A program made the position numbers and the translations under genes. Positions 1 to 43,082 of a stretch of 64,000 bases of DNA are shown here, in pieces. The stretch comes from Antedon mediterranea (lineage: Eukaryota > Animalia > Echinodermata). The DNA is taken from the NCBI RefSeq assembly GCF_964355755.1, contig NC_092678.1, forward strand, positions 19,919,365 to 19,983,364, written 5' to 3'. Position 1 is the stretch's first letter, and each line of letters starts with the position of its first letter. The notes below the pieces were generated by a model that had not been told where the DNA came from, did no database searches, and saw nothing but the letters and a program-made list of their open reading frames with translations.

Positions 1-155
1 GTTTGGCAGAGTGAATGGCAAGCGTGCTCACAATCCCCTTTGGCTGTCTTGATGTCATGACACACACACAGTTATCAATGAGGCACTTGTCAAACTTCAT
101 GGTATCAGTCACACAAAAATGATTGGAAATGTAATTTTATTTCAAACCTAGTTAC

Positions 156-1110
<955 letters not shown>

Positions 1111-2314
1111 AATTAAAACTGTGTAATTTCGCTAATAGTATAATAAAGTAGTCTTATATTGGTGACTATTTACAAAAAAGACCGGTACCCACGCGCGTTT
1201 ATTGTACGTTCTTAAGCTACCAAATGAGGGCGCCATCATCACATACTTTTTCTTTTATTAATATTAGTTTGATGATCTTTAATAAAAAAGATCACCTATT
1301 GTTATTGTATAAAATCTTTATTATTTCTCGTTTTTTTTTTAATTTTTTTTAAATACATCAATTATTGAATACTAGACAATTGTCAATTAAGAAATTGTCC
1401 GCCGCTTTTAGTAAAATACAAAATATATACAGTAAAACCTAAAGTATTATTGACAGATGTAGTATTTACAAGCAAAAAATGAATCCCGAAATTTATATTC
1501 CGTTTGAATGAAGAATATAACATAAGTGTTTAGGCCTACATCAAAATCTAATATTCGTTACAATATAGATTAAATGTGGTAAATAAGTCACATAGCATAG
1601 GCAATCTTCAGGAAAAACGTAGGCCTAGATAATGTTCACTGTTTACGTACCATGCCTTAGCAGACCTACCGTAAAATCGGTCAAGGAGCTATATTTTTAT
1701 AATCGAAATGATGTGTTATCCTGTGTAGTTAATTCTTAAGTCTACAGAACACACTATTTTCTTACAAACATTAACACAAGAAAATTCAACATAAAGAAAG
1801 GGGTTTGCAACGAAGAGATTACGAACAGAGAGACATTAAAAAAAAAAAAAAAAATCACAAGTAAACTTTAGAAGTAGGACATTTAAACAGAAAAACCAAT
1901 TCCCGTCTTGCTTTCCTGAAATGGGGGAAACGGTGTACTAAAGTATTATACAATTCATTTGTAGACTATATATATACAACATTATAATAATACATGTTAA
2001 TAAACCAATATAATGTTGATTTCTTTTTTACCAAGTCATGTTTCATTTCATACCTATACAATTTCTTTAGTTTGTAAACATTAATGTTTAAAAAACAAAA
2101 ATTCTTTGTGCTGCACTTGGGGTAAAGCGTATGACATTTCGGTGCGCTTTGCAAGACGTCACACAATCACCATGGATAGAAATGTAAACGTACGCACGAA
2201 ACAAAACCTCAAATGGCAACTAGCGACAGATGGCTGGTGAATAGCCCGATAAATATCGGTCGTTTTTCCAGTCTTTACAACCGTTTTCGGAAGTATTTTA
2301 ATAAATTAATTGAT

Positions 2315-5300
2315 ATGCCTATTTCTCTTTGTTGTGGAATTAAACTCCGCCTTCCCAAATGTTTACGTAGAACAAGAATAGGTAAGTTGATTACGTTACA
2401 ACATAGGCCTAGTCTGATTCTAACTTTAGGCAAGTTATCCTATCTAGGCGCACACCTATGCCTAATTTGATTATATTACAATGATCTGCGCACTTAATTA
2501 GTAACTTGTGTTGTTTTCTTTACATTTTTGGTAGGCCTATGTACACTTTAAAAAGATAAGATAAGGTTAAAAGTATTAAAACTATGGGAAAATGGCATAA
2601 TTATTGTTAAAAATAATGTATGTTTATGTAACCATAGTTACTGAACTTGTAGTGGTGCGTATAAAATGTCGCGTATGAAAGAGCATCAGCGCGGTGTTAC
2701 TAGTTGACCTCTCTCACGCCGTCACGAGATCACAAAAAGCGGTGTGACGTATGCAAAACAATGAATTGCTCTGGGGGCGTGGCCTGTATTATAATCATAA
2801 TGCTATTGGTGTAAAGTTGGGCGCTTATTTACGTCATAAGAAAAGTAAAACAAAAATCGTGATACGTCGTCGTGTGTGTTTGTTGTTGTGTGTGCGCGGC
2901 GGAGGCGTGACGCGGTCATACCGCCGGTGGTGGTCGGTCGGATCATGGATTCTTTAATCCATGGTCGGATGATCCGTGGACGTGGTATAGTTGGTACGCT
3001 TAGACCTAGGGCCTAGCTAGGCTAGGCCTAGTAGTAGAAGCAGTGTAGTAGGCCTACTGGCCAAAACCTCATATAGATAGATAGGCCTATAGTTATTGCC
3101 CAAGGTATACTATGGCTACTATGCAAACATGCCTAACTAGCTCTAGGCTAGGCCTAGGCCTAGGCTAGACCTAGTCCTAGCCTAGCTAGTAGGGCCTGGC
3201 CCTAGAGGCTACTTTAGGCTAGCCTAGAGAACTAGCCTCTAGGTAGCCTCTAGGTAGGGCCAGCAGGCTAGGCCTAGGCTAGGCCCTATCTATAGTATAG
3301 GCCTAGTTAGGCTAGCCTACCTAGCTAGGCCTATACTATAGATAGGGCCTTGCCTAGTCTAGCCTAGGCCTACAATTCTACTATCTAGTACTAGGCTAGT
3401 AGGCATAAGCATGTAGGTCTAGCTAGGCTGCCTATATAGGCCTAGGGCCTAGCTAGGCCTACCTACCCCTACTCTAGGGCTAGGCTAAAGCTAGTGTAGC
3501 TGGCTAGACTAGCTAGGGCCTGCTAGTTCCTCTAGCTAGCTAGGCTAGCCTCTAGCCAGCTACACTAGCTTAGCCTCTAGCTTTAGCCTAGGGTAGGTAG
3601 GCCTAGTTAGTATATAGGCAGCCTAGTAGAGGCCTTAGCCTAGTACTAGCTAGTAGAAGGCTAGCCTCTAGCTAGGGCTAAGCCTACTAGGCTAGACTAG
3701 CTACTAGCCTAGTATTAATTATTAGTTTAATAGTTAGTATTACGAGGCCTCTCACTAGGCGATCCTATACTAAAGCTACCCAAGACTGAGTATAAGAGCC
3801 TACCTAGCTAGGAGGCCTGGCTAGTATTTTAGGCTGGGCCCTATCTAGCCTAGTTGATATCCCTTCCCAACCAACACTCTATCTTCACACATTGCAAGGC
3901 CGTAGCGAGAGGTTAAAATCAGACGAAGCAATACTTTTAATATAAATTATATTATATAAAATATGACCTCAGCTTCTTAGTGGGGTGGGTTGTGAAATTT
4001 TCAGAGATAATTCGAGCGCCTCTTCTTCCTCATGCTAACTACGGCACTGCATTGTTCATAGTGGTATCTTTTTTTGTAGTTGTAGCAGTCTTACCAGCAG
4101 GACCCCCAGCCCCAGTAGTAGCAGCAGCAACAGGAGATGAAGAAGATGAATCCTATAGACCAATAGATGGAAGTTCAAACAATCAATCATCATCTTCACC
4201 TGCTGCAGGTAGGCCAGTCTTGCATAATAGCCTATCATTTACTATTTTCCTTAGGACACCACAGATTTGTATACAGTATAGGGTGTGCTGTTGGAATATA
4301 TTTACTTTAGAATTAAAGATTAATTTGAAAAACTTTTATCACAGTCAAGTCACTCACTCCTGGCCTGAATGACTTATTACAACTAACAAGCGCAAAACAT
4401 CTGCGATTGACACTAAAACTAGACACGTCCACCACCTGCCAGACATCGCAACTTGCAGTCAAGAGCACCAATGACGAAGATGTACAACTCAAAAAGCGTG
4501 CAGCTACATTTGTGCAAGATATCCTAGCCACTGCAGTTGCAAAATGCCAAGCCATAGAACAAGACGAGAACAACACTGACCGTAAGAACATACACTACCA
4601 TCATGCCTAAAAGTAGTTCAAGCCATCAAAGGTGGAGCATGTGTACCTAAAGCCAACCTCTCCCCAACACCCAACCCAGTCCACCTCGTTAAATAAACCA
4701 ATCTGGAATTTGATGATGAATAATGGTTATTTGAATTTTTTTTAAATAAAGTTTTTTTTTTATCTTAATCATTATTAAAAGAATTGTATAATAATTGATT
4801 ATAATTGTTGACATATCAAAATAATTGTAATAATATCTTTATAGACAAGGCAACTATAGCACAGCAGCCAGCTGAAACCTCCACCTCTGATGAGGATGTC
4901 GAGCTTGACAATCTGGCAACAAGTCTTGTGGAAGAAACTTTGTCAATAGTAATGGCAGAACAACTGGCCACTGTTCATAACAATGAAGCACATCACCCAA
5001 CTGCAGGTAGGCCAGTCTTGCATAATAGCTTATCATTTAATATTTTCTTTAGGACATCACACATGATTTGTTTTAGTGTATATTAGTATGCTGTTGGAAT
5101 ATATTACTTTCTAATTAAAGTTTAATTTGAAAAAACTTTTATCACAGTCAACTCACTCACTCCTGACCTGAATGACTCATTACAACTAACAAGCGCAAAA
5201 CATCTGCGATCGACACAAAAACTAGACACGTCCACCTGCCAGACATCGCAACTTGCAGTGAAGAGCATCAATGACGAAGATATGCAAGTCAAACAGCGTG

Positions 5301-8300
5301 CAGCTACCTTTGTGCAAGATGTCCTAGCCACTGCAGTTGCAAAATGCCAAGCCATAGAACAAGACGAGAACAACACTGACCGTAAGAACATACACTACCA
5401 TCATGCCTAAGCCAATTGAAAGGCCTACCACTAGCATAAATAGATATCGAAAAGTAATTCAAGCCATCAAATGTGGAGCATGTGTACCTAAAGACAACCT
5501 CTCTCCAACACCCACCCCAGTCCACCTCGTTAAATAAACCAATCAATCTCTCATCTTTTTTTTATAATTGATTAAATTCTCTTTCACATTTATATTTAGA
5601 TTTGTTCTTAGAATTGAAGGACAAAATATATAGCTCATGTTTTTCTGTTTTCTTTTCGTCTCTTAATTTAATTTTCTTGTTTTGTTTTTAGATAAACAAT
5701 TTGATGATGAATAACGGTTATTTAAATTTTTTTTAAATAAAGTCATTTTTTTTTATCTTAATCATAAAAGAATTGTATAATAATTGATTATAATTTTAGA
5801 CATATCAAAATAATTGTAATAATATCTCTATAGACAAGGCAACTGAAGCACAGCAGCCAGCTGAAACCTCCACCTCTGATGAGGATGTCGAGCTTGACAA
5901 TCTGGCAACAAGTCTTGTGGAAGAAACTTTGTCAATAGTAATGGCAGAACAACTGGCCACTGTTCATAACAATGAAGCACATCATCCAACTGCAGGTAGG
6001 CCAGCCTTGCATAATAGCTTATCATCTAATATTTTCTTTAGGACATCCCACATGATTTGTTTTAGTGTATATTGGTATGCTGTTGGAATATCTTTATAAT
6101 TAAAGTTTAATTTGAAAAAACTTTTATCACAGTCAACTCACTCACTCCTGGCCTGAATGACTCATTACAACTAACAAGCGCAAAACATCTGCGATCGACA
6201 CAAAAACTAGACACGTCCACCTGCCAGACATCGCAACTTGCAGTCAAGAGCATCAACGACGAAGATATACAAGTCAAACAGCGTGCAGCTACATTTGTAC
6301 AAGATGTCCTAGCCACTGCAGTTGCAAAATGCCAAGCCATAGAACAAGACAAGAACAACACTGACCGTAAGAACATACACTACCATCATGCCTAAGTCAA
6401 TTGATAGGCCTACCACTAGCATAAATAGATATCGAAAAGTAGTTCAAGCCATCAAAGGTGGAGTATGTGTACCTAAAGCCAACCTCTCCCCAACACCCAC
6501 CACAGTCCACCTCGTTAAATAAACCAATCAATCTCTCATCTTTTTTTTATAATTGATTAAATTCTTGTTCACATTTATATTTAGATTTCTTCTCAGAATT
6601 GAAGGACAAAATATATAGCTCATGTTTTTCTGTTTCCTTTTCATCTCTTAATTTAATTTTCTTGTTTTGTTTTTAGATAAAGAATTTGATGATGAATAGC
6701 GGTTAATTAAATTTTTTTTAAATAAAGTCATTGTTGTTTTATCTTAATCATAAAAGAATTGTATAATAATTGATTATAATTTTTGACATATCAAAATAAT
6801 TGTAATAATATCTCTATAGACAAGGCAACTGAAGCACAGCAGCCAGCTGAAACCTCCACCTCTGATGAGGATGTCGAACTTGACAATCTGGCAACAAGTC
6901 TTGTGGAAGAAACTTTTTCAATAGTAATGGCAGAACAACTGGCTACTGTTCATAACAATGAAACACATCATCCAACTGCAGGTAGGCCAGTCTTGCATAA
7001 TAGCTTATCATTTAATATTTTCTTTAGGACATCCCACATGATTTGTTTAAGTGTATATTAGTATGCTGTTGGAATATATTACTTTAGAATTAAAGTTTAA
7101 TTTGAAAAAACTTTTATCACAGTCAACTCACTCACTCCTGGCCTGAATGACTCATTACAACTAACAAGCGCAAAACATCTGCGATCGACACAAAAACTAG
7201 ACACGTCCACCTGCCAGACATCGCAACTTGCAGTGAAGAGCATCAATGACGAAGATATGCAAGTCAAACAGCGTGCAGCTACCTTTGTGCAAGATGTCCT
7301 AGCCACTGCAGTTGCAAAATGCCAAGCCATAGAACAAGACGAGAACAAGACTGACCGTAAGAACATACACTACCATCATGCCTAAGCCAATTGAAAGGCC
7401 TACCACTAGCATAAATAGATATCGAATAGTAGTTCAAGCCATCAAAGGTGGAGCATGTGTACCTAAAGCCAACCTCTCCCCAACACCCACCCCAGTCCAC
7501 CTCGTTAAATAAACCAATCAATCTCTCATCTTTTTTTTATAATTGGTTAAATTCTCTTTCACATTTATATTTAGATTTGTTCTCAGAATTGAAGGACAAA
7601 ATATATAGCTCATGTTTTTCTGTTTTCTTTTCGTCTCTTAATTTAATTTTCTTGTTTTGTTTTTAGATAAACAATTTGATGATGAATAACGGTTATTAAA
7701 ATATTTTTTTAATAAAGTCATTTTTTTTTATCTTAATCATAAAAGAAATGTATAATAATTGATTATAATTTTAGACATATCAAAATAATTGTAATAATAT
7801 CTTTATAGACAAGGCAACTGAAGCACAGCAGCCAGCTGAAACCTCCACCTCTGATGAGGATGTCGAGCTTGACAATCTGGCAACAAGTCTTGTGGAAGAA
7901 ACTTTGTCAATAGTAATGGCAGAACAACTGGCCACTGTTCATAACAATGAAGCACATCATCCAACTGCAGGTAGGCCAGCCTTGCATAATAGCTTATCAT
8001 CTAATATTTTCTTTAGGACATCCCACATGATTTGTTTTAGTGTATATTGGTATGCTGTTGGAATATATTACTTTATAATTAAAGTTTAATTTGAAAAAAC
8101 TTTTATCACAGTCAACTCACTCACTCCTGACCTGAATGACTCATTACAACTAACAAGCGCAAAACATCTGCGATCGACACAAAAACTAGACACGTCCACC
8201 TGCCAGACATCGCAACTTGCAGTGAAGAGCATCAATGACGAAGATATGCAAGTCAACCAGCGTGCAGCTACCTTTGTGCAAGATGTCCTAGCCACTGCAG

Positions 8301-11300
8301 TTGCAAAATGCCAAGCCATAGAACAAGACGAGAACAACACTGACCGTAAGAACATACACTACCATCATGCCTAAGTCAATTGATAGGCCTACCACTAGCA
8401 TAAATAGATATCGAAAAGTAGTTCAAGCCATCAAAGGTGGAGCATGTGTACCTAAAGCCAACCTCTCCCCAACACCCACCCCAATCCACCTCGTTAAATA
8501 AACCAATCAATCTCTCATCTTTTTTTTATAATTGGTTAAATTCTCTTTCACATTTATATTTAGATTTGTTCTCAGAATTAAAGGACAAAATATATAGCTC
8601 ATATTTTTCTGTTTCCTTTTCATCTCTTAATTTAATTTTCTCTTTTTGTTTTTAGATAAAGAATTTGATTATGAATAATGGTTATTTAAATTTTTTTAAA
8701 TTAAAGTCATTTTTTTTATCTTAATCATAAAAGAATTGTATAATAATTGATTATAATTTTTGACATATCAAAATAATTGTAATAATATCTCTATAGACAA
8801 GGCAACTGAAGCACAGCAGCCAGCTGAAACCTCCACCTCTGATGAGGATGTCGAGCTTGACAATCTGGCAACAAGTCTTGTGGAAGAAACTTTGTCAATA
8901 GTAATGGCAGAACATCTGGCCACTGTTCATAACAATGAAGCACATCATCCAACTACAGGTAGGCCAGCCTTGCATATTAGCTTATCATTTAATATTTTCT
9001 TTAGGGCATCCCACATGATTTGTTTTAGTGTATATTAGTATGCTGTTGGAATATATTACTTTATAATTAAAGTTTAATTTGAAAAAACTTTTATCACAGT
9101 CAACTCACTCACTCCTGGCCTGAATGACTCATTACAACTAACAAGCGCAAAACATCTGCGATCGACACTAAAACTAGACACGTCCACTTGCCAGACATCA
9201 CAACTTGCAGTCATGAGCACCATTGATGAAGATGTGCATCTCAAACAGCAGGCAGCTACCTTTGTACAAGATGTCCTATCAACTGAAGTTGCAAAATGTC
9301 AAGACGAGAACAACACTGACCGTAAGAACATACACTATCATCAATTGATAACATACAGTATTTATTTGTAGATATCTAAAAGAAGTTTTAAGCTGTCAAA
9401 AAGGAGTGCGTGTACCTGTAGCCAATCTCTCTCCCAACACCCACCCAGTTAAATAGACCAATCAATCTTTCATCTTTTGTTTTTTTAAACAGATTCTTGT
9501 TTACATTTGTTCATTCTCATTTTTAAAGGAGACAGTATATTAAGCTCATCTTTTTCTGTTTTCTTTTCATCTCTTAATTTCCTTTTCATGCTTTGTTTTT
9601 CGACGAAAAATGTTATGATGAATAAAGAAAATTTGAATAAAAAAAAGATAAATATTCATGATTTGTTGTTATAATTGTTATTATTATTGTATAATTTTTA
9701 GAATATTAATTAAATAGTAATAATTATCAAACAAATTTCTCTATAGACAAGGCAACTGAAGCCCAGCAGAATACTGCAGCAGAGCAGACAACTGCAGAAA
9801 AGCAAACAACTGCAGCCTCCATCTCTGAGGAGGATGAGGAGCTCGACAAGCTTTCAAATTCTGTTGTTCAAGATGTTTTGTCGAAGGTCGCAGAAAATCT
9901 TGCCACCGCCAACCTGCTAACTGAAAAACAGCAGCCACCTGAATCAGCCTACACGGATACAGTAGAGAAAGATCAGAGGAAAGGTACAATATGACTTTTC
10001 ATTCATATGAATTTTCATTTAAGCTTAACCAATCATTTCCATACTGTTATATTTTTTAACAATTTGAAATCTATATTGTAACATATCAGTAACTGAATTT
10101 GCTTTTACCCTGCGCTAGATCTCACAACCGATACTTGCACAGAATACGGAGACCCTTTCTTCGGAATCAAAGGAGATACTGCTATGGCAGGTGGACAATT
10201 TGTAAGTAACTCATAGACCTCACAAAAACAGGTACACAACAAGCAGTGGCATGAGCCTATTTCAATGTACTTAATTTACTGAATGTGAAAAGAGTGAAAA
10301 AATAATTCGGCTTCCCAAAAATAATTTAAAAATAAAGAAGATCTAGGCTATCAAACAACAGGACACTGACCATCCTTGTACATAAAACGTTTTGTGCGGA
10401 TGCGATATGATTATGCCCCACCCCACAACATTTCATTAGAGTCTATGTGACTGGTAGTACCAAAACGGTACCATCCATAATCCGTATTATTTTTTTAAAA
10501 TTTTTACTATGTTTGAATTTTTTATAGGCATCAGATTGCAAAAGCATCCAGGAACAGAATGATGAAATGGATGAAGCATTTTATAAGTATGGAGTGGAAA
10601 GTGATTATGACTGGATAGACATGGGACCTTCAGACCCAAGCGATGAAGAACCAGATGCCTGGGTGAGGCAGAGAGCTATCGCCCAGAGATTAGCAGCCAA
10701 GGCTGCGAGGAGATCTTTGAATATTAACCCTGGTAAGCCAACTGAAGCCTCCATCTGTGATGATGATGAGGAGCTGAACAATCATCCAACTACAGGTAGG
10801 TCAGCCTTTCATAATAGCTTATCATTTAATATTTTCTTTAGGACATCCCACATGATTTGTTTTATTGTATATTAGTATGCTGTTGGAATATATTACTTTA
10901 TAATTAAAGTTTAATTTGAAAAAACTTTTATCACAGTCAACTCACTCACTCCTGGCCTGAATGACTCATTACAACTAACAAGCGCAAAACATCTGCGATC
11001 GACACTAAAACTAGACACGTCCACCTGCCAGACATCACAACTTGCAGTCATGTTCACCAATGATGAAGATGTGCATCTCAAACAGCAAGCAGCTACCTTT
11101 GTACAAAATGTCCTATCAACTGCAGTTGCAAAATGTCAATACGAGAACAACACTGACCGTAAGAACATACACTATCATCAATTGGTAACATACAATATTT
11201 ATTTGTAGATATCTAAAAGAAGTTTTAAGCTGTAAAAAAGGAGTGTGTGTACCTGTAGCCAATCTCTCTCCCAACACCCACCCAGTTAAATAGACCAATC

Positions 11301-12817
11301 AATTTTTCATCTTTTGTTTTTTTAAACAGATTCTTGTTTACATTTGTTCATTGTAATTTTTAAAGGAGACAGTATATTAAGCTCATCTTTTTCTGTTTTC
11401 TTTTCATCTCTTAATTTCCTTTTCATGCTTTGTTTTTCGACGAAAAATGTTATGATGAATAAAGAACATTTGAATAAAAAAAAGATAAATATTCATGATT
11501 TGTTGTTATAATTGTTATTATTATTGTATAATGTTTAAAATATTAATTAATTGTAATAATTATCAAACAAATTTCTCTATAGACAAGGCAACTGAAGCCC
11601 AGCAGAATACTGCAGCACAGCAGACTACTGCAGAAAAACAAACAACTGCAGCCTCCATCTCTGAGGAGGATGAGGAGCTCGACAAGCTTTCAAATTCTGT
11701 TGTTCAAGATGTTTTGTCAAAGGTCGCAGAAAATCTTGCCACCGCCAACCTGCTAACTGAAGAACAGCAGCCACCTGAATCAGCCAACACGGATACAGTA
11801 GAGAAAGATCAGAGGAAAGGTACAATATGACTTTTCATTCATATGAATTTTCATTTAAGCCTTAACCAATCATTTCCTATACTGTTATTTTTTTTAACAA
11901 TTTGAAATCTATATTATAACATATCAGTAACTGAATTTCCTTTTACCCTGCCCTAGATCTCACAACCGATATTTGCACAGAATACGGAGACCCTTTCTTC
12001 GGAATCAAAGGAGATACTGCTATGGCAGGTGGACAATTTGTAAGTAACTCATAGACCTCACAAAAACAGGTACACAACAAGCAGTGGCATGAGCCTATTT
12101 CAATGAATGTGAAAAGAGTGAAAAAATATTTCGGCTTCCCAAAAATAATTTAAAAATAAAGAAGATCTAGGCTATCAAACAACAGGACAATGACCATCCT
12201 TGTACATAAAACGTTTTGTGCGGATGCGATATGATTATGCCCCACCCCACAACATTTCATTAGAGTCTATGTGACTGGTAGTACCAAAACGGTACCATCC
12301 ATAATCCATATTATTTTTTTTAAGTTTTTACTATGTTTGAATTTTTTATAGGCATCAGATTGCAAAAGCATCCAGGAACAGAATGACGAAATGGATGAAG
12401 CATTTTATAAGTATGGAGTGGAAAGTGACTATGACTGGATAGACATGGGACCTACAGACCCAAGCGACGAAGAACCAGATGCCTGGGTGAGGCAGAGAGC
12501 TATCGCCCAAAGATTAGCAGCTAAGGCTGCTATGAAATCATCGAATATTAACCCTGGTAAGTTTATTTTTATTTTTAAAAGCTGATTTGTTTGTCTACGC
12601 TTTACAAATTCTTCCCTATTAGTAGGGCCTCATGAGTACTAAAAATATTCATTCATTTTAATGTTTAGACCAACACGAGCTACAAGACGTCGACAATGAT
12701 GAGGAAACAAATTGCCGACCAATAGTAGTTGACATGACATCACTGGCTGACATGACAGCAGATGATGATCCAAACTTAACCTATCATGATGCTACGATAG
12801 ACCAATACAATTACTGA
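2315..12817 (+). CDS. Copy 1: multi-exon acidic repeat protein (~1294 aa predicted), putative lipid-anchored multivalent AKAP-like scaffold with 14 helix exons
   Basis: Exons: ex1 2315-2381, ex2 4080-4208, B 4345-4581, A 4845-5006, then four further B/A pairs at ~990 bp period, B' ~9100, C 9747-9983, D 10119-10201, E+ 10528-10795, B', C, D, E, F 12669-12817 (TGA). All junctions are GT-AG, the phases are compatible (1-1; D 1-0; E 0-1) and the summed length 3885 nt is divisible by 3. AATAAA at 12928. Function inferred from motifs. Confidence 0.8.
2650..2990. promoter_or_regulatory. CpG-rich motif cluster in intron 1 (TGACG half-sites, TTACGTCA, GGGGCGTGGC GC-box), repeated in each copy
   Basis: Local CpG enrichment in AT-rich DNA, with Sp/KLF-like and CRE-like motifs kept in all five copies. 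Confidence 0.4.
2995..3855. repeat. CTAG/AGGCCT/TAG-rich low-complexity palindromic tract in intron 1 (also ~17455-18115, ~29570-30170, ~43695-44335, ~55310-55962)
   Basis: Dense ctag, taggccta and gctagc words. Perfect 26 bp inverted repeat at 3281-3306/3325-3350. Confidence 0.9.
3895..4049. mobile_element. ~155 bp MITE-like element in intron 1 (also 18167-18322, 30212-30367, 44379-44534, 56011-56166)
   Basis: Terminal inverted repeats caaggccgtag ... ctacggccctg (10/11 match in copies 2-5), flanked by the direct repeat CATTG on both sides. No coding capacity. Confidence 0.6.
4345..9320 (+). repeat. Internal ~990 bp tandem module (exon A 162 nt + intron + exon B 234 nt + intron). Equivalent blocks at ~18610-23580, ~30650-35635, ~44820-47790, ~56455-61390
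   Basis: acaaggcaactgaagcacagcagcc recurs at ~4845 (variant), 5834, 6820, 7809 and 8797, and likewise in the other copies. Confidence 0.97.
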
Positions 12818-12927
12818 ATACTTTAATCATATTTACAATGGACTAATTATAATCATTTCAATATTAATTTTACGATAAAGATACATTATTTGATATGTTT
12901 GTTTTATGAAATTTACAGTTGTGCAAT

Positions 12928-12933
12928 AATAAA
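12928..12933 (+). terminator. Probable polyadenylation signal AATAAA of copy 1 (conserved after each complete copy)
   Basis: gtgcaatAATAAAtg ~110 nt after the stop, followed by a T/GT-rich tract. Confidence 0.5.
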
Positions 12934-14682
12934 TGATAATTTGATATATATTGTAAACTTTGTTTTTAATTTTATTTATTTCTCTTTCGGGCTTTTGATT
13001 TTAATATAGTTAATGAAATCTTTTTACTTTCCTACATTGAAGTACTTTCTATTATAATAATTATAAATAAGAAATTTCACCTAATTAACACATAAAGTAC
13101 TACAAATCATTATTGTAAATTCTGTATGATTTTAATTGGTTCTAAATTTATTATATCCTTATTCTCATTCTTAAATAATTTTGATAATTTAATAAATACA
13201 ATTTTTGAATACTAGTATTGTAAATGTTAAAATTATTGAGAGAATTTAAAATATTAATTAATTCAGGCTCCTCTGATTATTGTTAAAAAATAAAATTAAC
13301 ACTCTGACAACATAAAATAGTTAAACAGTGCCATCTATTTTTAACGGTCGATAAACTTTTTAACAGCAGTTAGGCCCAACTTTCGGTTCACGATGTGAGG
13401 ACATAGTTACCATTTCTGGCATTATTATTATTATTATTTTATTTTTCTTTTATTAGGTGATATTTTATAATAAAAAGATCACTTATTGTTATTGTATGAA
13501 AATATCATTATTGTTTTACTTTATTTTTAGTCGCGTTCAACGGTCGGTCGGTTGGTCGGTAAATACTAACTTGAGCACACGACTGCAACCATGTATATGG
13601 ACTTGTTTCTTATTTTTACTATTTCAAAGAATTATTTTTTCACCAAAACACTTGGCGTCGGGAACCAGGGGGATGGGGGAAAGCCCACTGAAAGCTCGGC
13701 TCTTTGAGTAATTTATAGATCGTTTCAATCGATTTCTGAACACATAAAAATTCCTCCCAGAAGAATACAATTAGGTTACGCATTTTTAAAGCACTGGTCC
13801 TGATGCCCACACACAAAATATATAATCTGTATTTGTATGTAGATACTGTATTTTCAGAAATTACATACGATATGTCGATATAAGAAGTCTTACTTTCTTA
13901 TTCATTTCAATAATTTAATGATTTTGCCTTTCAAAAGTGAGGTACTGGTACTGGTACTGGTTCAAATAACCGTCTCACAGAGACATCTGGTAGCCATTGA
14001 CTTGAAGTTGGCATTTGGATGTGTTACTTTTAAATGTAGGCCTACAGTATGAGAGTGACTACTACCAAATTACACAGTCACAAAACAACTTATAAAACAG
14101 TTCATATGAGGTGGACAATCACTCACTAATCAAATTATCTACAACTCCGTGGATGCGTAAGATCGTATCTGTAAATTTGGTGTTTTACTATTAGAACTTT
14201 TAATTTATGTCCACTTGTCTGTTGTTAGTAACATACCTTTTACGAGCTTTTATAGAATTTTCTTCTTTATGGCATGAGAAAATTTCCCGAATGATCTTAA
14301 TCGAAACCGTACTGAGTTTGGTCTTCTAGCGTCCCAGCCGCTCCCCCAAAAGTCATCCATTCAGAAGCACTGATGAACACAGTTTATCCGTGGTGGCTAT
14401 GAGTGGTCCGGTCACGTCCCGGGACATGACTAATTATAATCACTTCACTATAATATCACTATAATTATAATCGCTTCGCTCGCGTACCATCTAGATCGTG
14501 CCCATAGATGGTTCTCGAATACATAGTAATTTCAGCGTTAAAAAATTGGCGACTTCAAATGTACATGCAAGACAATTAAATCGGTGATTTATGTACTCAA
14601 CTAAAATTAGCATCCTGGGAATTACTTCCGAAAGAGAAACTTGTCACAAAATAAGACCAATTGTTTTGAAACAAACTAAATG

Positions 14683-14942
14683 TGTGTTTTGTATGCAACA
14701 TGAGGGTTGAGGGATGGGGAAGAGGATGGGTGCAAAGACGAAAAATTTGTGTTTTGTATGCAACATAAGGGTTGAGGGATGGGGAAGAGGATGGGTGCAA
14801 AGACGAACAATTTGTGTTTTGTATGCAACATGAGGGTTGAGGGATGGGGAAGAGGATGGGTGCAAAGACGAACAATTTGTGTTTTGTATGCAACATGAGG
14901 GTTTAGGGATGGGGAAGAGGATGGGTGCAAAGACGAACAATT
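14683..14942 (+). repeat. 65 bp minisatellite x4, G-rich
   Basis: gtatgcaaca at 14691, 14756, 14821 and 14886. The unit contains gggttgagggatggggaagaggatggg. Confidence 0.95.
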
Positions 14943-16673
14943 TTTAAATATATTCTTTATCCATTTAGTAACGAAATATCAATTGTTTTCATGTTTTACA
15001 AATAATATACCACTAAACCATGGAGGTATTTATACCTCCATGACTAAACACAGTAAAACATTGCTATTTAATACTTTGTTAAAACTGTCACCGTATAGTC
15101 GATTGAAATAGTACAGTACATGTAACGATACATCACTTATACGACGTTTATATTTTTTTGTACAGTAATTAGATTATTAATTAATATTAACGTTCAGAAG
15201 GAACTGTCAGTAATAAAGTAAACATCTCTATTCGGGGGAAATCGTAAGTTCGCTTTAATCGTCAATAAATAATTATCTAACTTAACTTAATTAGTATGTC
15301 TAATGGTTTTGAATTGTTTCTTAGATTAGAGCCAATTCATATTTAAGTTGGTTTCTAACCGCCAAAGTTGTTCTGCGTTTAGGGCATGTGATCCTTCATA
15401 CCGTACCTTAGGCATATCCCCTAATGGCTTTACAATGTTACTTATGCCAGTGAGTGGGAGGGTGGTGGTGTGGGTGGTGGTGGTTTAACTGCAATAATAA
15501 AGATGATTGTACATAATAGATGGCGACTGGAAAGGCTAGCTCATTATCCGTTAAAAAAAATACCTATATCCAACCTCTGCAGCACAGATTGGATAAAATG
15601 GATCGAATTTCTGTTATGGCTGTACAGCACTTGTCTTTACGACGCCTGAGGGAATAGACACTTGTGGAACTGAGATTGGAATGTTCCATTTATCGCAAAA
15701 CAGTTGTATAAATGTATATTAAATCTATCAAAGTAGTATTTTTTAAAGAAAATCGGTCTGTCTTCAACATTATGATGCTGTACTCGAGCTGTTCAACCAG
15801 TTTTCAGCTATTAAAAACCATTATCGTATTAGGGGATAGGAAAATGCGAAGCATCCTCGTATTATTGTGTGCGGGTATTTTTCAAGATGGACATCCATTA
15901 GACAGTGTATACCACGATCGAAAAACACCCCTATTTGGGGCAAATCGTTGAACTTAAATTCGTTTTAATCGTCAATAACTAATTATCGAACTCAATTTAA
16001 TTAGTAAACTGGGTTACATCAGGCGATTAAAATCAGTACCGAAAGTACGAACCAACTTTATATACCATCGAGTAAACATTCTAGAAATAACGCGCGATTT
16101 ACCGAATTTTGCCCTTACGTAAATTTATATATAGATGCCCGGGAGCACTCTATAGAATTGCAATGAATTGTGTGTTTGTATTAACTTAATGCTGTACTTT
16201 ATTCTTTATTCTTACAACCAACAGTGCACGGGTTCATAATACAAATATATATTTAAAAACACAACGATAACATGTTTATAATAATACCGTTCAAAAAACA
16301 TTTAAATTGCGAACCGCAACAGTTAAAAATACCTAAACAATTATTAGATTTATAATTATAAATCTTGAAACGAAGATTATGAACACAGACATTAAATTAA
16401 ATTAGATTAAGACATTTAAACTGAAAAATAAAGTCCTGTTTTGCTTTTCCTGAAATGGGGGAAACGACAGGGTAGGCCTATACTATATAACTTAATTTTG
16501 TAGACGATTTCAATAAATCGTATAAATTAATAATATAACACATAGGCCATGTTTCATTTTATACCTACAATTTCTTAAAATTATTTTTTTGTTTGTAAAC
16601 ATTAATGTTTAAAAAACAAACATTCTTTGTGCCGCACTTGGGGTATGCGTATGACATGTCGGTGCGCTTTGCA

Positions 16674-16681
16674 TGACGTCA
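16674..16681. promoter_or_regulatory. CRE palindrome TGACGTCA ~170 bp upstream of the MPISLCC ATG (also 28799-28806, 42912-42919, 54536-54543; AGACGTCA variant at 2154-2161)
   Basis: Exact match to the CREB/ATF consensus in four of five copies. Function not shown. Confidence 0.5.
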
Positions 16682-16844
16682 CACAATCACCATGGATAGA
16701 AATGTAAACGTACGCACGAAACAAAACCTCAAATGGCAACTAGCGACAGCTTGTGCCGGATGGCTGGTGAATAGCCCGATACATATCGGTCGTTTTTCCA
16801 GTCTTTACAACCGTTTTCGGAAGTATTTTAATAAATTAATTGAT

Positions 16845-19800
16845 ATGCCTATTTCTCTTTGTTGTGGAATTAAACTCCGCCTTCCCAAATGTTTACGTAG
16901 AACAAGAATAGGTAAGTTGATTACGTTACATTACAACATAGGCCTAGTCTGATTCTAACTTTAGGCAAGTCATCCTATCTAGGCACCATGCCTAATTTAG
17001 ATTATAATTATTACAACACTTAATTAGTAACTGGTGTTGTTTTCTTTACATTTTTGGTAGGCCTATGTACACTTTAAAAAAATAAGGTTAAAAGTATTAA
17101 AACTATGGGAAAATGGCATAATTATTGTTACAATAATGTTTGTTTATGTAACCGTAGTTACTGAACTTGTAGTGGTGCGTATAAAATGGTCGCGTAAAAG
17201 AGCATCAGCGCGGTCTTAGTTGACCTCTCACGTCACGAGATCACAAAAAGCGGTGTGACGTATGTAAAACAATGAATTGCTCTTGGGGGCGTGGCCTGTA
17301 TTATAATCACAATGCTATTGGTGTAAAGTTAGGCGCTTAATTACGTCATAAAATGAAAAAAAAATCGTGATACGTTGCGAGTGTGACGTGTGGTGGGGGG
17401 TGTGTTTGTCGAGAGTCGGTGGTTGATCGGGGTCGGATCCGTGGACGTGGTAGTTTGTACTAGCTTAGGCCTTAGGCTAGCTATAGGCCTACTAGGCCTA
17501 GTAGTAGAAGCAGTAGGCCTACTGGCCAAAACCTCAAAACATGCCTAGGTAGCGGTACTACTACTAGCCTACTACAGTAGTACTACTAGTATAGGGTAGG
17601 CCTAGTACTAGCCTAGCCTAGCTAGCCTATAGAGGGCCTAGCTAGACTAGAGCCTGCCCTGCGTGAGGCTAGCCTAGCCTCAGCTCAGGCCTAGCTAGCT
17701 AGAGTAGTAGGTCTAGACTCTCTAGGCCTAATGCTAGTCATCTAGGCCCTAGCTAGGCTAGCCTCTAGCCAGCTACACTAGCTTAGCCTCTCTATAGCTT
17801 TAGCCTAGGCTAGTAGGGTAGGTAGGCCTAATTAATTAGTATATAGAATTATAGGTTAGGCAGCCTAACCTAGAGGCCTACTACTAGGCTAGCCTAGGCC
17901 TTAGCCTAATACTAGCTAGTAGAAGGCTAGCCTCTAGCTAGGGCTAGGCCTACTATTATAGGCTAGACTAGCCTAGTATTAACTATTAGTTTAATAGTTT
18001 AGTATTACGAGGCCTCTCACTAGGCGATCCTATACTAAGCTACCCAAGAGTATAAGAGCCTACCTAGCTAGGAGGCCTGGCTAGTATTTTAGGCTGTGCC
18101 CTATCTAGCCTACAGTAGTTGATATCCCTTCCCAACCAACACTCTATCTTCACACGTGAGACATTGCAAGGCCGTAGCGAGAGGTTAAAATGAGACGAAG
18201 CAATATGCTTTTAATATAATTATATTATATAAAATATGACCTCAGCTTCTTAGTGGGCTGGGTTGTGAAATTTTCAGAGATAATTCGAGCGCCTCTTCTT
18301 CCTCATGCTAACTACGGCCCTGCATTGTTCATATTGGTATCTTTTTTTGTAGTTGTAGCAGTCTTACCAGCAGGACCCCCAGCCCCAGTAGTAGCAGCAG
18401 CAACAGGAGATGAAGAAGATGAATCCTATAGACCAATAGATGGAAGTTCGAACATTCAATCATCATCTTCACCTGCTGCAGGTAGGCCAGCCTTGCATAA
18501 TAGCCTATCATTTACTATTTTCCTTAGGACACCACAGATTTGTATACAGTATATAGGGTATGCTGTTTACTTTAGAATTAAAGATTAATTTGAAAAACTT
18601 TTATCACAGTCAACTCACTCACTCCTGGCCTGAATGACTTATTACAACTAACAAGCGCAAAACATCTGCGATTGACACTAAAACTAGACACGTCCACCTG
18701 CCAGACATCGCAACTTGCAGTCAAGAGCACCAATGACGAAGATGTGCAACTCAAAAAGCGTGCAGCTACATTTGTACAAGATGTCCTAGCCACTGCAGTT
18801 GCAAAATGCCAAGCCATAGAACAAGACGAGAACAACACTGACCGTAAGAACATACACTACCTTTATGCCTAAGCCAATTGATAGGCCTACCACTAGCATA
18901 AATAGATATCGAAATAATTTTCTTGTTTTGTTCTTAATCTTAGATAAAGAATTTGATGATGAATAATTGTTATTTGAATTTTTTTTAAATAAAGTCTTTT
19001 TTTTATCTTAATCATAAAAGAATTGTATAATAATTGATTATAATTTTAGACATATCAAAATAATTGTAATAATATCTCTTTAGACAAGGCAACTGAAGCA
19101 CAGCAGCCAGCTGAAACCTCCACCTCTGATGAGGATGTCGAGCTTGACAATCTGGCCACAAGTCTTGTGGAAGAAACTTTGTCAGTAGTAATGGCAGAAC
19201 AACTGGCAACTGTTCATAACAATAAAGCACATTATCCAACTGCAGGTAGGCCAGCCTTGCATAATAGGTTATCATTTAATATTTTCTTTAGGACATCCCA
19301 CATGATTTGTTTTAGTGTATATTAGTATGCTGTTGGAATATATTACTTTAGAATTAAAGTTTAATTTGAAGAAACTTTTATCACAGGCAACTCACTCACT
19401 CTTGGCCTGAATGATTCATTACAACTAACAAGCACAAAACATCTGCGATCGTCACAAAAACTAGACACGTCCACCTGCCAGACATCTCAACTTGCAGTCA
19501 AGAGCACCAATGACGAAGATGTACAACTCAAAAAGCGTGCAGCTACATTTGTGCAAGATATCCTAGCCACTGCAGTTGCAAAATGCCAAGCCATAGAACA
19601 AGACGAGAACAACACTGACCGTAAGAACATACACTACCATCATGCCTAAGCCAATTGAAAGGCCTACCACTAGCATAAATAGATATCGAAAAGTAATTCA
19701 AGCCATCAAATGTGGAGCATGTGTACCTAAAGACAACCTCTCCCCAACACCCAACCCAGTCCACCTCGTTAAATAAACCAATCAATCTCTCATCTTTTTT

Positions 19801-27820: not shown

Positions 27821-28969
27821 TTCAGAAATTACATACGATATGTCGATATAAGAAGTCTTACTTTCTATTTCATTTCAATAATTTAACGATTTTTGCCTTT
27901 CAAAAGTGAGGGGGACAACCACTCACTAATCAAATTATCTACAACTCTGTGGATGCGTAAGATCGTATCTGTAAATTTGGGGATTTACTATTAGAACTTT
28001 TAATTGATGTCCACTTGTCTGTTGTTAGTAACATACCTTTTACGAGCTTATATCGAATATTCTTCTTATGGCATGAGAACATTTCCCGAATGATCTTAAT
28101 CGAAACGGTACTGAGTTTGGTCTTCTAGCGTCCCAGCCGCTCCCCCAAAAGTCATCCATTCAGAAGCACTGATGAACACAGTTTATCCGTGGTGGCTATG
28201 ATTGGTCCGGTCCCGGGACATGACTAATTATAATCATGCCCAGGAGCACTCTATAGAATTGCAATGAATTGTATGTCTGTATTAACTTAATGCTGTACTT
28301 TATTCTTTATTCTTACAACCAACAGTGCACGGGTTCATAATACAAATATATATTTAAAAACACAACGATAACATGTTTATAATAATACCGTTCAAAAAAC
28401 ATTTAAATTGCGAACCGCAACAGTTAAAAATACCTAAACAATTATTAGATTTATAATTATAAATCTTGAAACGAAGATTATGAACACATACATTAAATTA
28501 AATTAGATTAAGACATTTAAACAGAAAAAAAAATAAATAAAATAAAGTCCTGTTTTGCTTTTCTTTTAAATGGGGGAAACGATATATACTATATAACTAT
28601 AGATTTAATAGTTAATTAATTTTTGTAGACGATTTCAATAAATCGTATAAATTAATAATATAACACATAGGCCATGTTTCATTTTATACCTACACTTTCT
28701 TAAAATTATTTTTTTGTTTGTAAACATTAATGTTTAAAAAACAAACATTCTTTGTGCCGCACTTGGGGTATGCGTATGACATGTCGGTGCGCTTTGCATG
28801 ACGTCACACAATCACCATGGATAGAAATGTAAACGTACGCACGAAACAAAACCTCAAATGGCAACTAGCGACAGCTTGTGCCGGATGGCTGGTGAATAGC
28901 CCGATAAATATCGGTCGTTTTTCCAGTCTTTACAACCGTTTTCGGAAGTATTTTAATAAATTAATTGAT

Positions 28970-31900
28970 ATGCCTATTTCTCTTTGTTGTGGAATTAAAC
29001 TCCGCCTTCCCAAATGTTTACGTAGAACAAGAATAGGTAAGTTGATTACGTTACATTACAACATAGGCCTAGTCTGATTCTAACTTTAGGCAAGTTATCC
29101 TATCTAGGCACCATGCCTAATTTAGATTATATTACAATGATCTGCGCACTTAATTAGTAACTGGTGTTGTTTTCTTTACATTTTTGGTAGGCCTATGTAC
29201 ACTTTAAAAAGATAAGGTTAAAAGTATTAAAACTATGGGAAAATGGCATAATTATTGTTACAATAATGTTTGTTTATGTAACCGTAGTTACTGAACTTGT
29301 AGTGGTGCGTATAAAATGGTCGCGTAAAAGAGCATCAGCGCGGTCTTAGTAGTTGACCTCTCACGTCACGAGATCACAAAAAGCGGTGTGACGTATGTAA
29401 AACAATATTATTGCTCTGGGGGGCGTGGCCTGTATTATAATCACAATGCTATTGGTGTAAAGTTAGGCGCTTATTTACGTCATAAAATGAAAAAAAAATC
29501 GTGAGTGTGTGGGGTGTGTTTGTCGAGAGTCGGTGGTTGATCGGGGTCGGATCCGTGGACGTGGTAGTTTGTAGCCTACTAGCTTAGGCCTAGGCTAGCA
29601 GGCCTAGTACTAGTAGTAGAAGCAGTAGGCCTACTGGCCAAAACCTCAAAACATGCCTAGCTAGGCCTAGGTAGCGGTACTATCCTACTACAGTAGTACT
29701 ACTAGCCTAGTATAGGGTAGGCCTAGCTACTAGCCTAGCCTATAGAGGGCCTAGCTAGATAGAGGCTAGCCTAGCCTCAGCTCAGCAGGCCTAGCTAGTA
29801 GTAGGTCTAGACTCTCTAGGCCTAATGCCAGTGATCTAGGCCCTAGCTAGGCTAGCGTCTAGCCAGCTACACTAGCTTAGCCTCTCTATAGGTTTAGCCT
29901 AGGCTAGTAGGGTAGGTAGGCCTATCTAGTTAGTATATAGGCAGCCTAGCCCTATAGAGGCCTACTACTAGGCTAGGCCTTAGCCTAGTACTAGCTAGTA
30001 GAAGGCTAGCCTCTAGCTAGGCTAGGGCTAGGCCTACTATTATTAGTTTAATAGTTTAGTATTACGAGGCCTCTCACTAGGCGATCCTATACTAAGCTAC
30101 CCAAGAGTATAAGAGCCTACCTAGCTAGGAGGCCTGGCTAGTATTTTAGGCTGTGCCCTATCTAGCCTAGTTGATATCCCTTCCCAACCAACACTCTATC
30201 TTCACACATTGCAAGGCCGTAGCGAGAGGTTAAAATCAGACGAAGCAATATGCTTTTAATATAATTATATTATATAAAATATGAACTCAGCTTCTTAGTG
30301 GGCTGGGTTGTGAAATTTTCAGAGATAATTCGAGCGCCTCTTCTTCCTCATGCTAACTACGGCCCTGCATTGTTCATATTGGTATCTTTTTTTGTAGTTG
30401 TAGCAGTCTTACCAGCAGGACCCCCAGCCCCAGTAGTAGCAGCAGCAACAGGAGATGAAGAAGATGAATCCTATAGACCAATAGATGGAAGTTCGAACAA
30501 TCAATCATCATCTTCACCTGCTGCAGGTAGGCCAGCCTTGCATAATAGCCTATCATTTACTATTTTCCTTAGGACACCACAGATTTGTATATAGGGTATG
30601 CTGTTTACTTTAGAATTAAAGATTAATTTGAAAAACTTTTATCACAGTCAACTCACTCACTCCTGGCCTGAATGACTTATTACAACTAACAAGCGCAAAA
30701 CATCTGCGATTGACACTAAAACTAGACACGTCCACCTGCCAGACATCGCAACTTGCAGTCAAGAGCACCAATGACGAAGATGTGCAACTCAAAAAGCGTG
30801 CAGCTACATTTGTACAAGATGTCCTAGCCACTGCAGTTGCAAAATGCCAAGCCATAGAACAAGACGATAACAACACTGACCGTAAGAACATACACTACCT
30901 TTATGCCTAAGCCAATTGATAGGCCTACCACTAGCATAAATAGATATCGAAATAATTTTCTTATTTTGTTTTTAGATAAAGAATTTGATGATGAATAATT
31001 GTTATTTGAATTTTTTTTAAATAAAGTCTTTTTTTTATCTTAATCATAAAAGAATTGTATAATAATTGATTATAATTTTTGACATATCAAAATAATTGTA
31101 ATAATATCTCTATAGACAAGGCACCTGAAGCACAGCAGCCAGCTGAAACCTCCACCTCTGATGAGGATGTCGAGCTTGACAATCTGGCAACAAATCTTGT
31201 GGAAGAAACTTTGTCAATAGTAATGGCAGAACACCTGGCCACTGTTCATGACAATGAAGCACATCATCCAACTGCAGGTAGGCCAGCCTTGCATAATAGC
31301 TTATCATTTAATATTTTCTTTAGGACATCCCACATGATTTGTTTTAGTGTATATTAGTATGCTGTTGGAATATATTACTTTAGAATTAAAGTTTAATTTG
31401 AAAAAAACTTTTATCACAGGTAACTCACTCACTCTTGGCCTGAATGATTCATTACAACTAACAAGCGCAAAACATCTGCGATCGACACAAAAACTAGACA
31501 CGTCCACCTGCCAGACATCGCAACTTGCAGTCAAGAGCATCAATGACGAAGATATGGAAATCAAACAGCGTGCAGCTACCTTTGTGCAAGATGTCCTAGC
31601 CACTGCAGTTGCAAAATGCCAAGCCATAGAACAAGACGAGAACAACACTGACCGTAAGAACATACACTACCATCATGCCTAAGCCAATTAATAGGCCTAC
31701 CACTAGCATAAATAGATATCGAAAAGTAGTTCAAGCCATCAAAGGTGGAGCATGTGTACCTAAAGCCAACCTCTCCCCAACACCCATCACAGTCCACCTC
31801 GCTAAATAAACCAATCAATCTCTCATCTTTTTTTTATAATTAGTTAAATTCTTGTTCACATTTATATTTATATTTGTTCTCAGAAATGAAGGACAAAATA

Positions 31901-39836: not shown

Positions 39837-40205
39837 CTGTATTTGTATGTAGATACTGTATTTGTATGTAGATACTGTATTTGTATGTAGATACTGTATT
39901 TGTATGTAGATACTGTATTTGTATGTAGATACTGTATTTGTATGTAGATACTGTATTTGTATGTAGATACTGTATTTGTATGTAGATACTGTATTTGTAT
40001 GTAGATACTGTATTTCTATGTAGATACTGTATTTGTATGTAGATACTGTATTTGTATGTAGATACTGTATTTGTATGTAGATACTGTATTTGTATGTAGA
40101 TACTGTATTTGTATGTAGATACTGTATTTGTATGTAGATACTGTATTTGTATGTAGATACTGTATTTGTATGTAGATACTGTATTTGTATGTAGATACTG
40201 TATTT
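39837..40205 (+). repeat. 19 bp minisatellite (ctgtatttgtatgtagata) ~19 copies
   Basis: Direct tandem repeat. Only a single unit lies at the homologous sites ~13827 and ~51688. Confidence 0.95.
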
Positions 40206-41119: not shown

Positions 41120-43082
41120 TTTAAATTTTTTTTTTTATCCATTTAGTAACGAAATATCAATTGTTTTCATGTTTTACAAATAATATACCACTAAACCATG
41201 GAGGTATTTATACCTCCATGACTAAACACAGTAAAACATTGCTATTTTTAAATATTAAGTATTAAATATAAGTATTAAAATACTTTGTTAAAACTGTCAC
41301 CGTATAGTCGATTGAAATAGTACAGTACATGTAACGATACATCACTTATACGACGTTTATATTTTTTTTGTACAGTAATTAGATTATTAATTAATATTAA
41401 CGTTCAGAAGGAACTGTCAGTAATAAAGTAAACATCTCTATTCGGGGAAAATCGTAAGTTCGCTTTAATCGTCAATAAATAATTATCTAACTTAACTTAA
41501 TTAGTAGGTCTAATGGTTTTGAATTGTTTCTTAGATTAGAGCCAATTCATATTTAAGTTGGTTTCTAACCACCAAAGTTGTTCTGCGTTTAGGGCATGTG
41601 ATCCTTCATACCGTACCACAGGCCTATCCCCTAATGGCTTTACAATGTTACTTATGCCAGTGAGTGGGAGGGTGGTGGTGTGGGTGGTGGTGGTTTAACT
41701 GCAATAATAAAGATGATTGTACATAATAGATGGCGACTGGAAAGGCTAGCTCATTATCCGTTAAAAAAAATACCTATATCCAACCTCTGCAGCACAGATT
41801 GGATAAAATGGATCGAATTTCTGTTATGGCTGTACAGTACTTGTCTTTACGACGCCTGAGGGAATAGACACTTGTGGAACAGAGATTGGAATGTTCCATT
41901 TATCGCAAAACAGTTGTATAAATGTATATTAAATCTATCAAAGTAGTATTTTTTAAAAAAAATCGGTCTGTCTTCAACATTATGATGCTGTACTCGAGCT
42001 GTTCAACCAGTTTTCAGCTATTAAAAACCATTATCGTATTAGGGGATAGGAAAATGCGAAGCATCCTCGTATTATTGTGTGCGGGTATTTTTCAAGATGG
42101 ACATCCATTAGACAGTGTATACCACGATCGAAAAACACCCCCTATTTGGGGCAAATCGTTGAACTTAAATTCGTTTTAATCGTCAATAACTAATTATCAA
42201 ACTCAATTTAATTAGTAAACTGGGTTACATCAGGCGGTTAAAATCAGTACCGAAAGTACGAACCAACTTTATATACCATCGAGTAAACATTCTAGAAATA
42301 ACGCGCGATTTACCGAATTTTGCCCTTACGTAAATTTATATATAGATGCCCGGGAGCACTCTATAGAATTGCAATGAATTGTGTGTTTGTATTAACTTAA
42401 TGCTGTACTGTATTCTTTATTCTTACAACCAACAGTGCACGGGTTCATAATACAAATACATATTTAAAAACACAACGATAACATGTTTATAATAATACCG
42501 TTCAAAAAACATTTAAATTGCGAACCGCAACAGTTAAAAATACCTAAACAATTATTAGATTTATAATTATGAATCTTGAAACGAAGATTATGAACACAGA
42601 CATTAAATTAAATTAGATTAAGACATTTAAACAGAAAAAAAAAAATAAAAAAAATAAAGTCCTGTTTTGCTTTTCTTTTAAATGGGGGAAACGATATATA
42701 CTATATAACTATAGATTTAATAATTCAATAACTTTGTAGACGATTTCAATAAATCGTATAAATTAATAATATAACACAAATAGGCCATGTTTCATTTTAT
42801 ACCTACACTTTCTTAAAATAATTTTTTTGTTTGTAAACATTAATGTTTAAAAAACAAATATTCTTTGTGCCGCACTTGGGGTATGCGTATGACATGTCGG
42901 TGCGCTTTGCATGACGTCACACAATCACCATGGATAGAAATGTAAACGTACGCACGAAACAAAACCTCAAATGGCAACTAGCGACAGCTTGTGCCGGATG
43001 GCTGGTGAATAGCCCGATAAATATCGGTCGTTTTTCCAGTCTTTACAACCGTTTTCGGAAGTATTTTAATAAATTAATTGAT

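Follow-up and report, generated by a model that had tools for sequence, protein, structure and literature searches.

A candidate membrane-targeting first exon in a tandem array of acidic repeat-scaffold genes of the crinoid Antedon mediterranea

Introduction

Several proteins held at membranes by acylated cysteines can be compared with the locus described here, as far as they are covered in the available portions of the cited papers. GAP-43 is acylated without myristate, its cysteines lying in a hydrophobic stretch that is followed by basic residues (PMC6944663). In RGS4 the palmitoylated Cys12 adjoins a membrane-targeting helix (PMC4555961), and in ARL13B a helix flanks the palmitoylated C8/9 and targets the protein even without palmitoylation (bioRxiv 10.1101/2021.05.25.445488). 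Among AKAPs, polybasic regions and palmitoyl groups tether the scaffold AKAP79/150 to membranes (PMC12083921), and AKAP18 alpha needs both Gly myristoylation and palmitoylation (PMC2174236, PMC3508976). The docking helix of AKAPs is defined as an amphipathic helix of 14-18 residues (PMC12083921), and predictions of this motif may be wrong, as for talin h50 (PMC10990152). In the available text of PMC2174236 and PMC3508976, the R-binding domain of AKAP7 is reported from lamprey onward, in vertebrates only.

The present work concerns a window of 64,000 nucleotides from the crinoid Antedon mediterranea, in which an initial annotation had singled out a short exon as the acylated N-terminus of an AKAP-like scaffold. 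An anchor would fix the site of action of an unusual, unannotated repeat scaffold. That scaffold with its many helices, and the array that encodes it, pose a larger question than the anchor motif does.

Results and discussion

Organisation of the gene array

Five tandem copies of one intron-rich gene, spaced by approximately 12-14.5 kb, were found across the window, together with an exon of a neighbouring gene:

2315, 16845, 28970, 43083 and 54707, + strand: exon-1 Met codons of copies 1 to 5
4345-12814, + strand: remainder of copy 1, with repeated exons, 14 amphipathic-helix motifs, acidic spacers and the terminal exon
62115-62117, + strand: early stop codon within one of the late exons of copy 5, the other four copies being open
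709-834, - strand: exon assigned to the Sm family (Pfam LSM, E 5e-11), whose gene has a probable first exon near 1101-1110 (- strand)

The Sm-family gene, which we take to be SmF-like, lies head-to-head with copy 1, its exon about 1.5 kb upstream, and forms the left boundary of the array. Copy 1 is the divergent copy at the array edge, and copy 5 is truncated by the window end. Read from the equivalents of Met 2315, the exon models of copies 1-4 give open frames of 1294, 1221, 1227 and 957 aa; their splicing is predicted, and since the intron boundaries were picked by motif, the GT-AG ends of all modelled introns (91/91) serve as a consistency check. After exon 2, each repeated exon contains one amphipathic-helix motif, with 14, 13, 12 and 9 matches in copies 1-4. 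The nonsense codon in copy 5 indicates that single-copy lesions occur and persist.

Counted as internal helix exons (4345-11819 and equivalents), copies 1-5 hold 14, 13, 13, 9 and 13, and every modelled repeat exon is in frame. Both observations would fit unequal crossing-over of the 1-kb exon pair as well as of the 12-14 kb gene. The spacers between copies contain short tandem repeats (14678-14943 and 39837-40205, with units of about 65 and 57 nt), and their content is not the same from unit to unit. The public proteins P0006, P0007 and P0010 match no window copy exactly, which suggests that the array may extend past the window.

One RefSeq model of A. mediterranea, XP_071959964.1, begins at the equivalent of Met 2315 with the same opening residues and uses a 4080-type acceptor; it differs by at least one residue from each window copy and ends by read-through of the third exon's donor. 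A second, XP_071960899.1, is identical to the C-terminal 399 residues encoded by copy 3. The accession next to XP_071959964.1 is a 3' fragment and other models start inside repeats, so the RefSeq annotation is fragmentary. The 3' models of copies 3 and 4 are unconnected to exon 1, which most RefSeq models lack. RefSeq also divides the copies into 5' and 3' genes.

Outside the species, nine helix repeats that match those of the array (E 6.8e-6) were found in XP_033114178.1, an acidic protein of the crinoid Anneissia japonica; since this model opens mid-repeat, it offers no N-terminus for comparison with exon 1. Neither the exons nor the A. mediterranea models had a Pfam match above the cut-off, and a protein atlas search gave no usable match. 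The Pfam matches on the Anneissia protein were histone-fold-like short helices judged generic, the weak PDB sequence matches (alphaRep, LptE and TTI1) were discarded, and P0011 proved to be an unrelated bacterial-type repeat protein.

Putative anchor features of exon 1

The exon at issue in copy 1 is:

2315-2381, + strand: exon 1, with the Met codon, Cys-Cys at 2330-2335, a third Cys at 2360-2362, six K/R and a phase-1 donor at 2382

Sequence comparison bore out the earlier statement that the 67 nt of exon 1 and the AG/GTAAGT donor are identical between copies (5/5), though this identity is weak evidence alone, since at the rate of the flanks 67 nt would stay free of substitutions with a probability of 0.08-0.18. 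The composition of the exon is more distinctive. In the models of copies 1-4, it holds the sole Cys-Cys pair of the whole protein; its net charge is +6, whereas that of the remainder ranges from -94 to -132, and the first acidic residue is at position 42. The cysteine pair sits in a hydrophobic stretch with a basic cluster after it, so that the proposed likeness to GAP-43 holds for what the available portion of PMC6944663 gives as the requirement of that anchor. Among simulated open 22-codon ATG frames, a Cys-Cys at positions 2-10 occurred in 93/13,528, and in combination with at least six K/R and no D/E in 1/13,528 (2/13,490 under a local model), by criteria set post hoc on a sequence already seen.

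Over 19 residues, hydropathy peaked at 1.72 in the RefSeq model of 152 aa and did not exceed 1.26 in the repeat-region models, and thus there is no clear transmembrane segment. Given the sole Cys-Cys pair and the basic exon on an acidic protein, an S-acylated membrane anchor is a reasonable reading, and it is plausible, judging by residue content, that exon 1 acts as such. We regard it as probable that 2315-2381 is a real exon encoding an anchor of a known type. Database searches found no homologs of exon 1 outside A. mediterranea. Contigs from four sequencing runs were compared over 1800-4960; one of them, presumed to be RNA, has coverage of intronic DNA, with no spliced joints and no exon-1 coverage, and is uninformative.

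Probable coding sequence upstream of Met 2315

The region before exon 1 contains the following features (negative positions are relative to Met 2315 or its equivalents):

2228-2229, + strand: site of a 10-nt gap unique to copy 1
2213-2215, + strand: in-frame upstream ATG of copy 1 (-102)
2172-2174, + strand: ATG in a strong context, in frame in copies 2-5 but not in copy 1, where it opens a 22-codon frame
16692-16911, + strand: extended first coding exon of copy 2 (73 codons)
28817-29036, + strand: extended first coding exon of copy 3
42930-43149, + strand: extended first coding exon of copy 4
54554-54773, + strand: extended first coding exon of copy 5
2261-2314, + strand: 18 in-frame codons before Met, a predicted basic amphipathic helix with five K/R, with T-tracts phased in the DNA

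The initial annotation had noted the gap after 2228 and the consequent switch of upstream ATG in copy 1 (-102, against -153 elsewhere), and both observations were confirmed. Three runs of one sample each gave a single contig with the 10-nt-containing form, though rare variants are lost from contigs. As an argument for a start at 2315, however, the gap is poor, since the frame is open in copies 2-5 and copy 1 is the outlier; because copy 5 has a disabling lesion too, the frameshift in copy 1 says little against upstream coding.

In copies 2-5, 56 codons upstream of Met are open, with an in-frame ACCATGG at -153; the chance of 51 open codons is about 0.025. Across the window ACCATGG shows no enrichment (9 seen vs 9.5 expected). 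In the 210 nt of 2172-2381 there are 0-1 substitutions, whereas the flanks carry 9-13 over some 340 nt (four dependent comparisons, Fisher p 0.003-0.058). This low-divergence block, running from the first ATG through the donor, is wider than the 67-nt exon, though promoter constraint or gene conversion could also be its cause.

For the peptide encoded by 2261-2314, the hydrophobic moment as a helix is 0.72, with its peak at 100 degrees; this value ranks first among 11,254 overlapping stop-free 18-mers (six frames, 1-16800) and was equalled by 26/20,000 and 12/20,000 residue shuffles, in a test conceived post hoc, with the sequence already seen. The coding frame is the sole stop-free one on the + strand here, and its moment is the highest of the six frames. 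A low-confidence AlphaFold model also places a helix over these codons (mean pLDDT of the models 41 and 56). The predicted helix would form part of an extended N-terminus of 73 aa with 15 K/R and 2 D/E.

This peptide coincides with a feature of the DNA. The strongest 10-11 nt T periodicity of the first 16.8 kb, a period equal to 3.5 codons, lies at 2261-2314 (5/5,582 windows, all there). With T positions fixed, the observed moment was matched by 99/5,944 open in-frame shuffles and by 152/31,563 over six frames, and synonymous recoding of the peptide gave the observed phasing in just 1.3-3.3% of trials, which indicates that DNA phasing may contribute to the apparent helix. In other strongly phased windows, 0/279 open frames attained a moment of 0.6. 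Neither a coding helix nor DNA phasing accounts for everything at this site. The phasing could be a DNA-bending or nucleosome signal laid over coding sequence.

Judged from frame, divergence and predicted helix, coding sequence upstream of Met 2315 is rather probable, in which case public gene models may omit 51 N-terminal residues. The proposal that 2315 is the true start is weakly supported: RefSeq concurs, but four of the five copies hold the in-frame ATG at -153, the low divergence begins at 2172 and a helix is predicted upstream. Our preferred, still tentative reading is that exon 1 would supply a long, acidic repeat scaffold with its membrane-targeting end, copies 2-5 starting at -153 with a helix before a likely S-acylated Cys-Cys. 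Initiation at -153 would put the predicted basic amphipathic helix ahead of the Cys-Cys; helix and K/R patch would adsorb to anionic membranes, after which a zDHHC enzyme could acylate the Cys-Cys, and perhaps the third Cys too, trapping the protein at the cytosolic leaflet. The anchor would then keep the 9-14 downstream amphipathic helices, possibly PKA-docking, close to the membrane. Copy 1 might start at its own -102 ATG or at Met 2315. Since either start yields a known acyl-anchor layout, membrane adsorption followed by S-acylation appears the most likely function.

A possible but rather unlikely alternative is that translation starts at Met 2315, with Cys6-Cys7 and the basic patch forming a GAP-43-type anchor and the upstream DNA serving as promoter or 5' UTR with phased T-tracts. 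A CpG peak and TGACGTCA, which we take to be a CRE, lie within -200 to -50; in copies 2-5 TGACGTCA is found 11 nt before the -153 ATG (16674-16681 in copy 2), a position as expected for promoter DNA and one that counts against the upstream start. The RefSeq start and the copy-1 frameshift point the same way, and the T-phasing exceeds what the peptide needs. Against a Met-2315 start stand the strong ATG with an open frame in 4/5 copies, the helix statistics, including the failure of open frames in other strongly phased windows to reach 0.6, the breaking up of the locus by RefSeq into fragments with odd starts, and the copy-5 lesion.

Mitochondrial presequences and calmodulin- or partner-binding helices are basic and amphipathic, with few acidic residues. 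A basic N-terminus of this kind might thus target the protein without acylation, the cysteines being incidental, and the amphipathic character and 15 K/R vs 2 D/E of the 73 aa would fit, as would the palmitoylation-independent targeting by the ARL13B helix in the available portion of bioRxiv 10.1101/2021.05.25.445488. We consider this improbable, as a Cys-Cys in hydrophobic context with basic residues after it seldom arises by chance, and helices of the PKA-docking type would presumably work in the cytosol.

A site that also counts against the upstream start overlaps the segment encoding the predicted helix:

2256-2271, + strand: acceptor-like pyrimidine tract and CAG, giving a phase-2 exon from 2272 (in this alternative model only)

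Exon 1 might accordingly be an internal exon from 2272, joined to an upstream exon that the model leaves unplaced, and the 10-nt gap would then be intronic. The tract and CAG at -43 are present in copies 1 and 2, and the 14 codons after 2272 hold the helix alone, with a moment of 0.79 (28/20,000 shuffles). This arrangement is nevertheless quite improbable: there is no strong donor in the 440 nt common to all copies (the best scores 7/9 and is too close), the low divergence reaches back to 2172, and about 1.5 kb upstream of copy 1 there is the head-to-head Sm-gene exon.

Exon 2 and the second CpG-rich stretch

Downstream of exon 1, two further features bear on the transcript:

4080-4208, + strand: exon 2, phase 1-1, Pro/Ala-rich and then an acidic linker
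2641-2990, no strand assigned: second CpG-rich, promoter-like stretch inside intron 1, a possible alternative first exon without the anchor

The acceptor of exon 2 had been placed at 4080 or 4086. Both are candidates, but 4040-4100 holds five AGs (4062, 4080, 4086, 4089 and 4098), and as all five share one frame, alternative acceptors would change only a few residues.

The motifs in 2641-2990 are presumably a GC box, CCAAT and CRE half-sites. That the main transcript arises here, leaving exon 1 minor or unused and the protein unanchored, is very improbable: the stretch is common to all five copies and most RefSeq models are without exon 1, but it diverges more (7-12 substitutions in about 216 nt, copy 1 vs others) than 2172-2381, and one RefSeq model includes exon 1.

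About 800 nt of AGGCCT-rich DNA come after this stretch, and only in copy 1 does an ATG frame run to a phase-1 GT near 2985. An RFX-like half-site at 2214-2220 was considered as a cilia or sperm promoter signal and rejected; since its 7-mer is found again in each of the B exons, it is not distinctive, and no such promoter is claimed.

Relation to AKAPs

The initial annotation had taken the acyl anchor as independent support for an AKAP. This does not follow, since GAP-43, PSD-95, RGS4 and ARL13B carry such anchors too and, to our knowledge, none of them is an AKAP; with acyl anchors on many non-AKAP proteins, exon 1 fits the AKAP reading without lending it independent support. The analogy to AKAP7 also fails at Gly2, residue 2 being Pro, Asp or Ala for the three candidate starts. 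The RI/RII-binding Pfam domain of AKAP7 was not matched by 9 exon translations and 4 full models, no AKAP family match was found in Pfam or PDB, and the helix profile matched no AKAP peptide in PDB. An open-library search found no paper on crinoid AKAPs.

Helices of 14-18 residues, the length given for docking helices in the available portion of PMC12083921, are present: the motif occurs 9-14 times per gene with moments of 0.36-0.55, and a low-confidence model places a helix at 111-136. A more speculative reading, which we consider doubtful, is that of a crinoid-specific, recently amplified array encoding a scaffold that is tethered to membranes and bears 9-14 PKA-docking helices in each chain. 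Alternative starts (-153 and 0) and an intron-1 promoter would toggle the anchor, and copy and repeat number would set the PKA load, with sperm or cilia as possible sites. SKIP and AKAP220, by comparison, have two or three PKA-docking helices, far fewer. If the helices described here bind PKA, about a dozen docking sites per lipid anchor would constitute a natural test of the effect of PKA density at a membrane on cAMP signalling.

Comparison with known membrane anchors

The anchor motif belongs to a class that is already known and is an ordinary device. Comparisons with the described systems follow the available portions of the cited papers. AKAP7/AKAP18 alpha and beta share a Cys-Cys near the N-terminus and an amphipathic helix downstream, but have one helix where the Antedon gene has 9-14. 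AKAP79/150 resembles the locus in the polybasic and palmitoyl tethering of a scaffold; no homology was detected, and it has one PKA helix vs the many candidate helices here. GAP-43 and PSD-95 (PMC6944663) likewise are soluble proteins with cysteines in a hydrophobic context, then basic residues, and no myristate. Their cysteines lie at 3-4, whereas those of exon 1 are residues 6-7 if counted from Met 2315 and residues 57-58 if counted from -153; no sequence homology to exon 1 was found, and acylation here is predicted. If the upstream start is used, the likeness shifts to RGS4 and ARL13B, in which an amphipathic helix adjoins the acylated cysteine or cysteines, with the differences that there is no RGS or GTPase domain here and that the helix is a prediction. 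The anchor is thus probably composed of helix, Cys-Cys and basic patch, nearer to RGS4 or ARL13B than to AKAP7.
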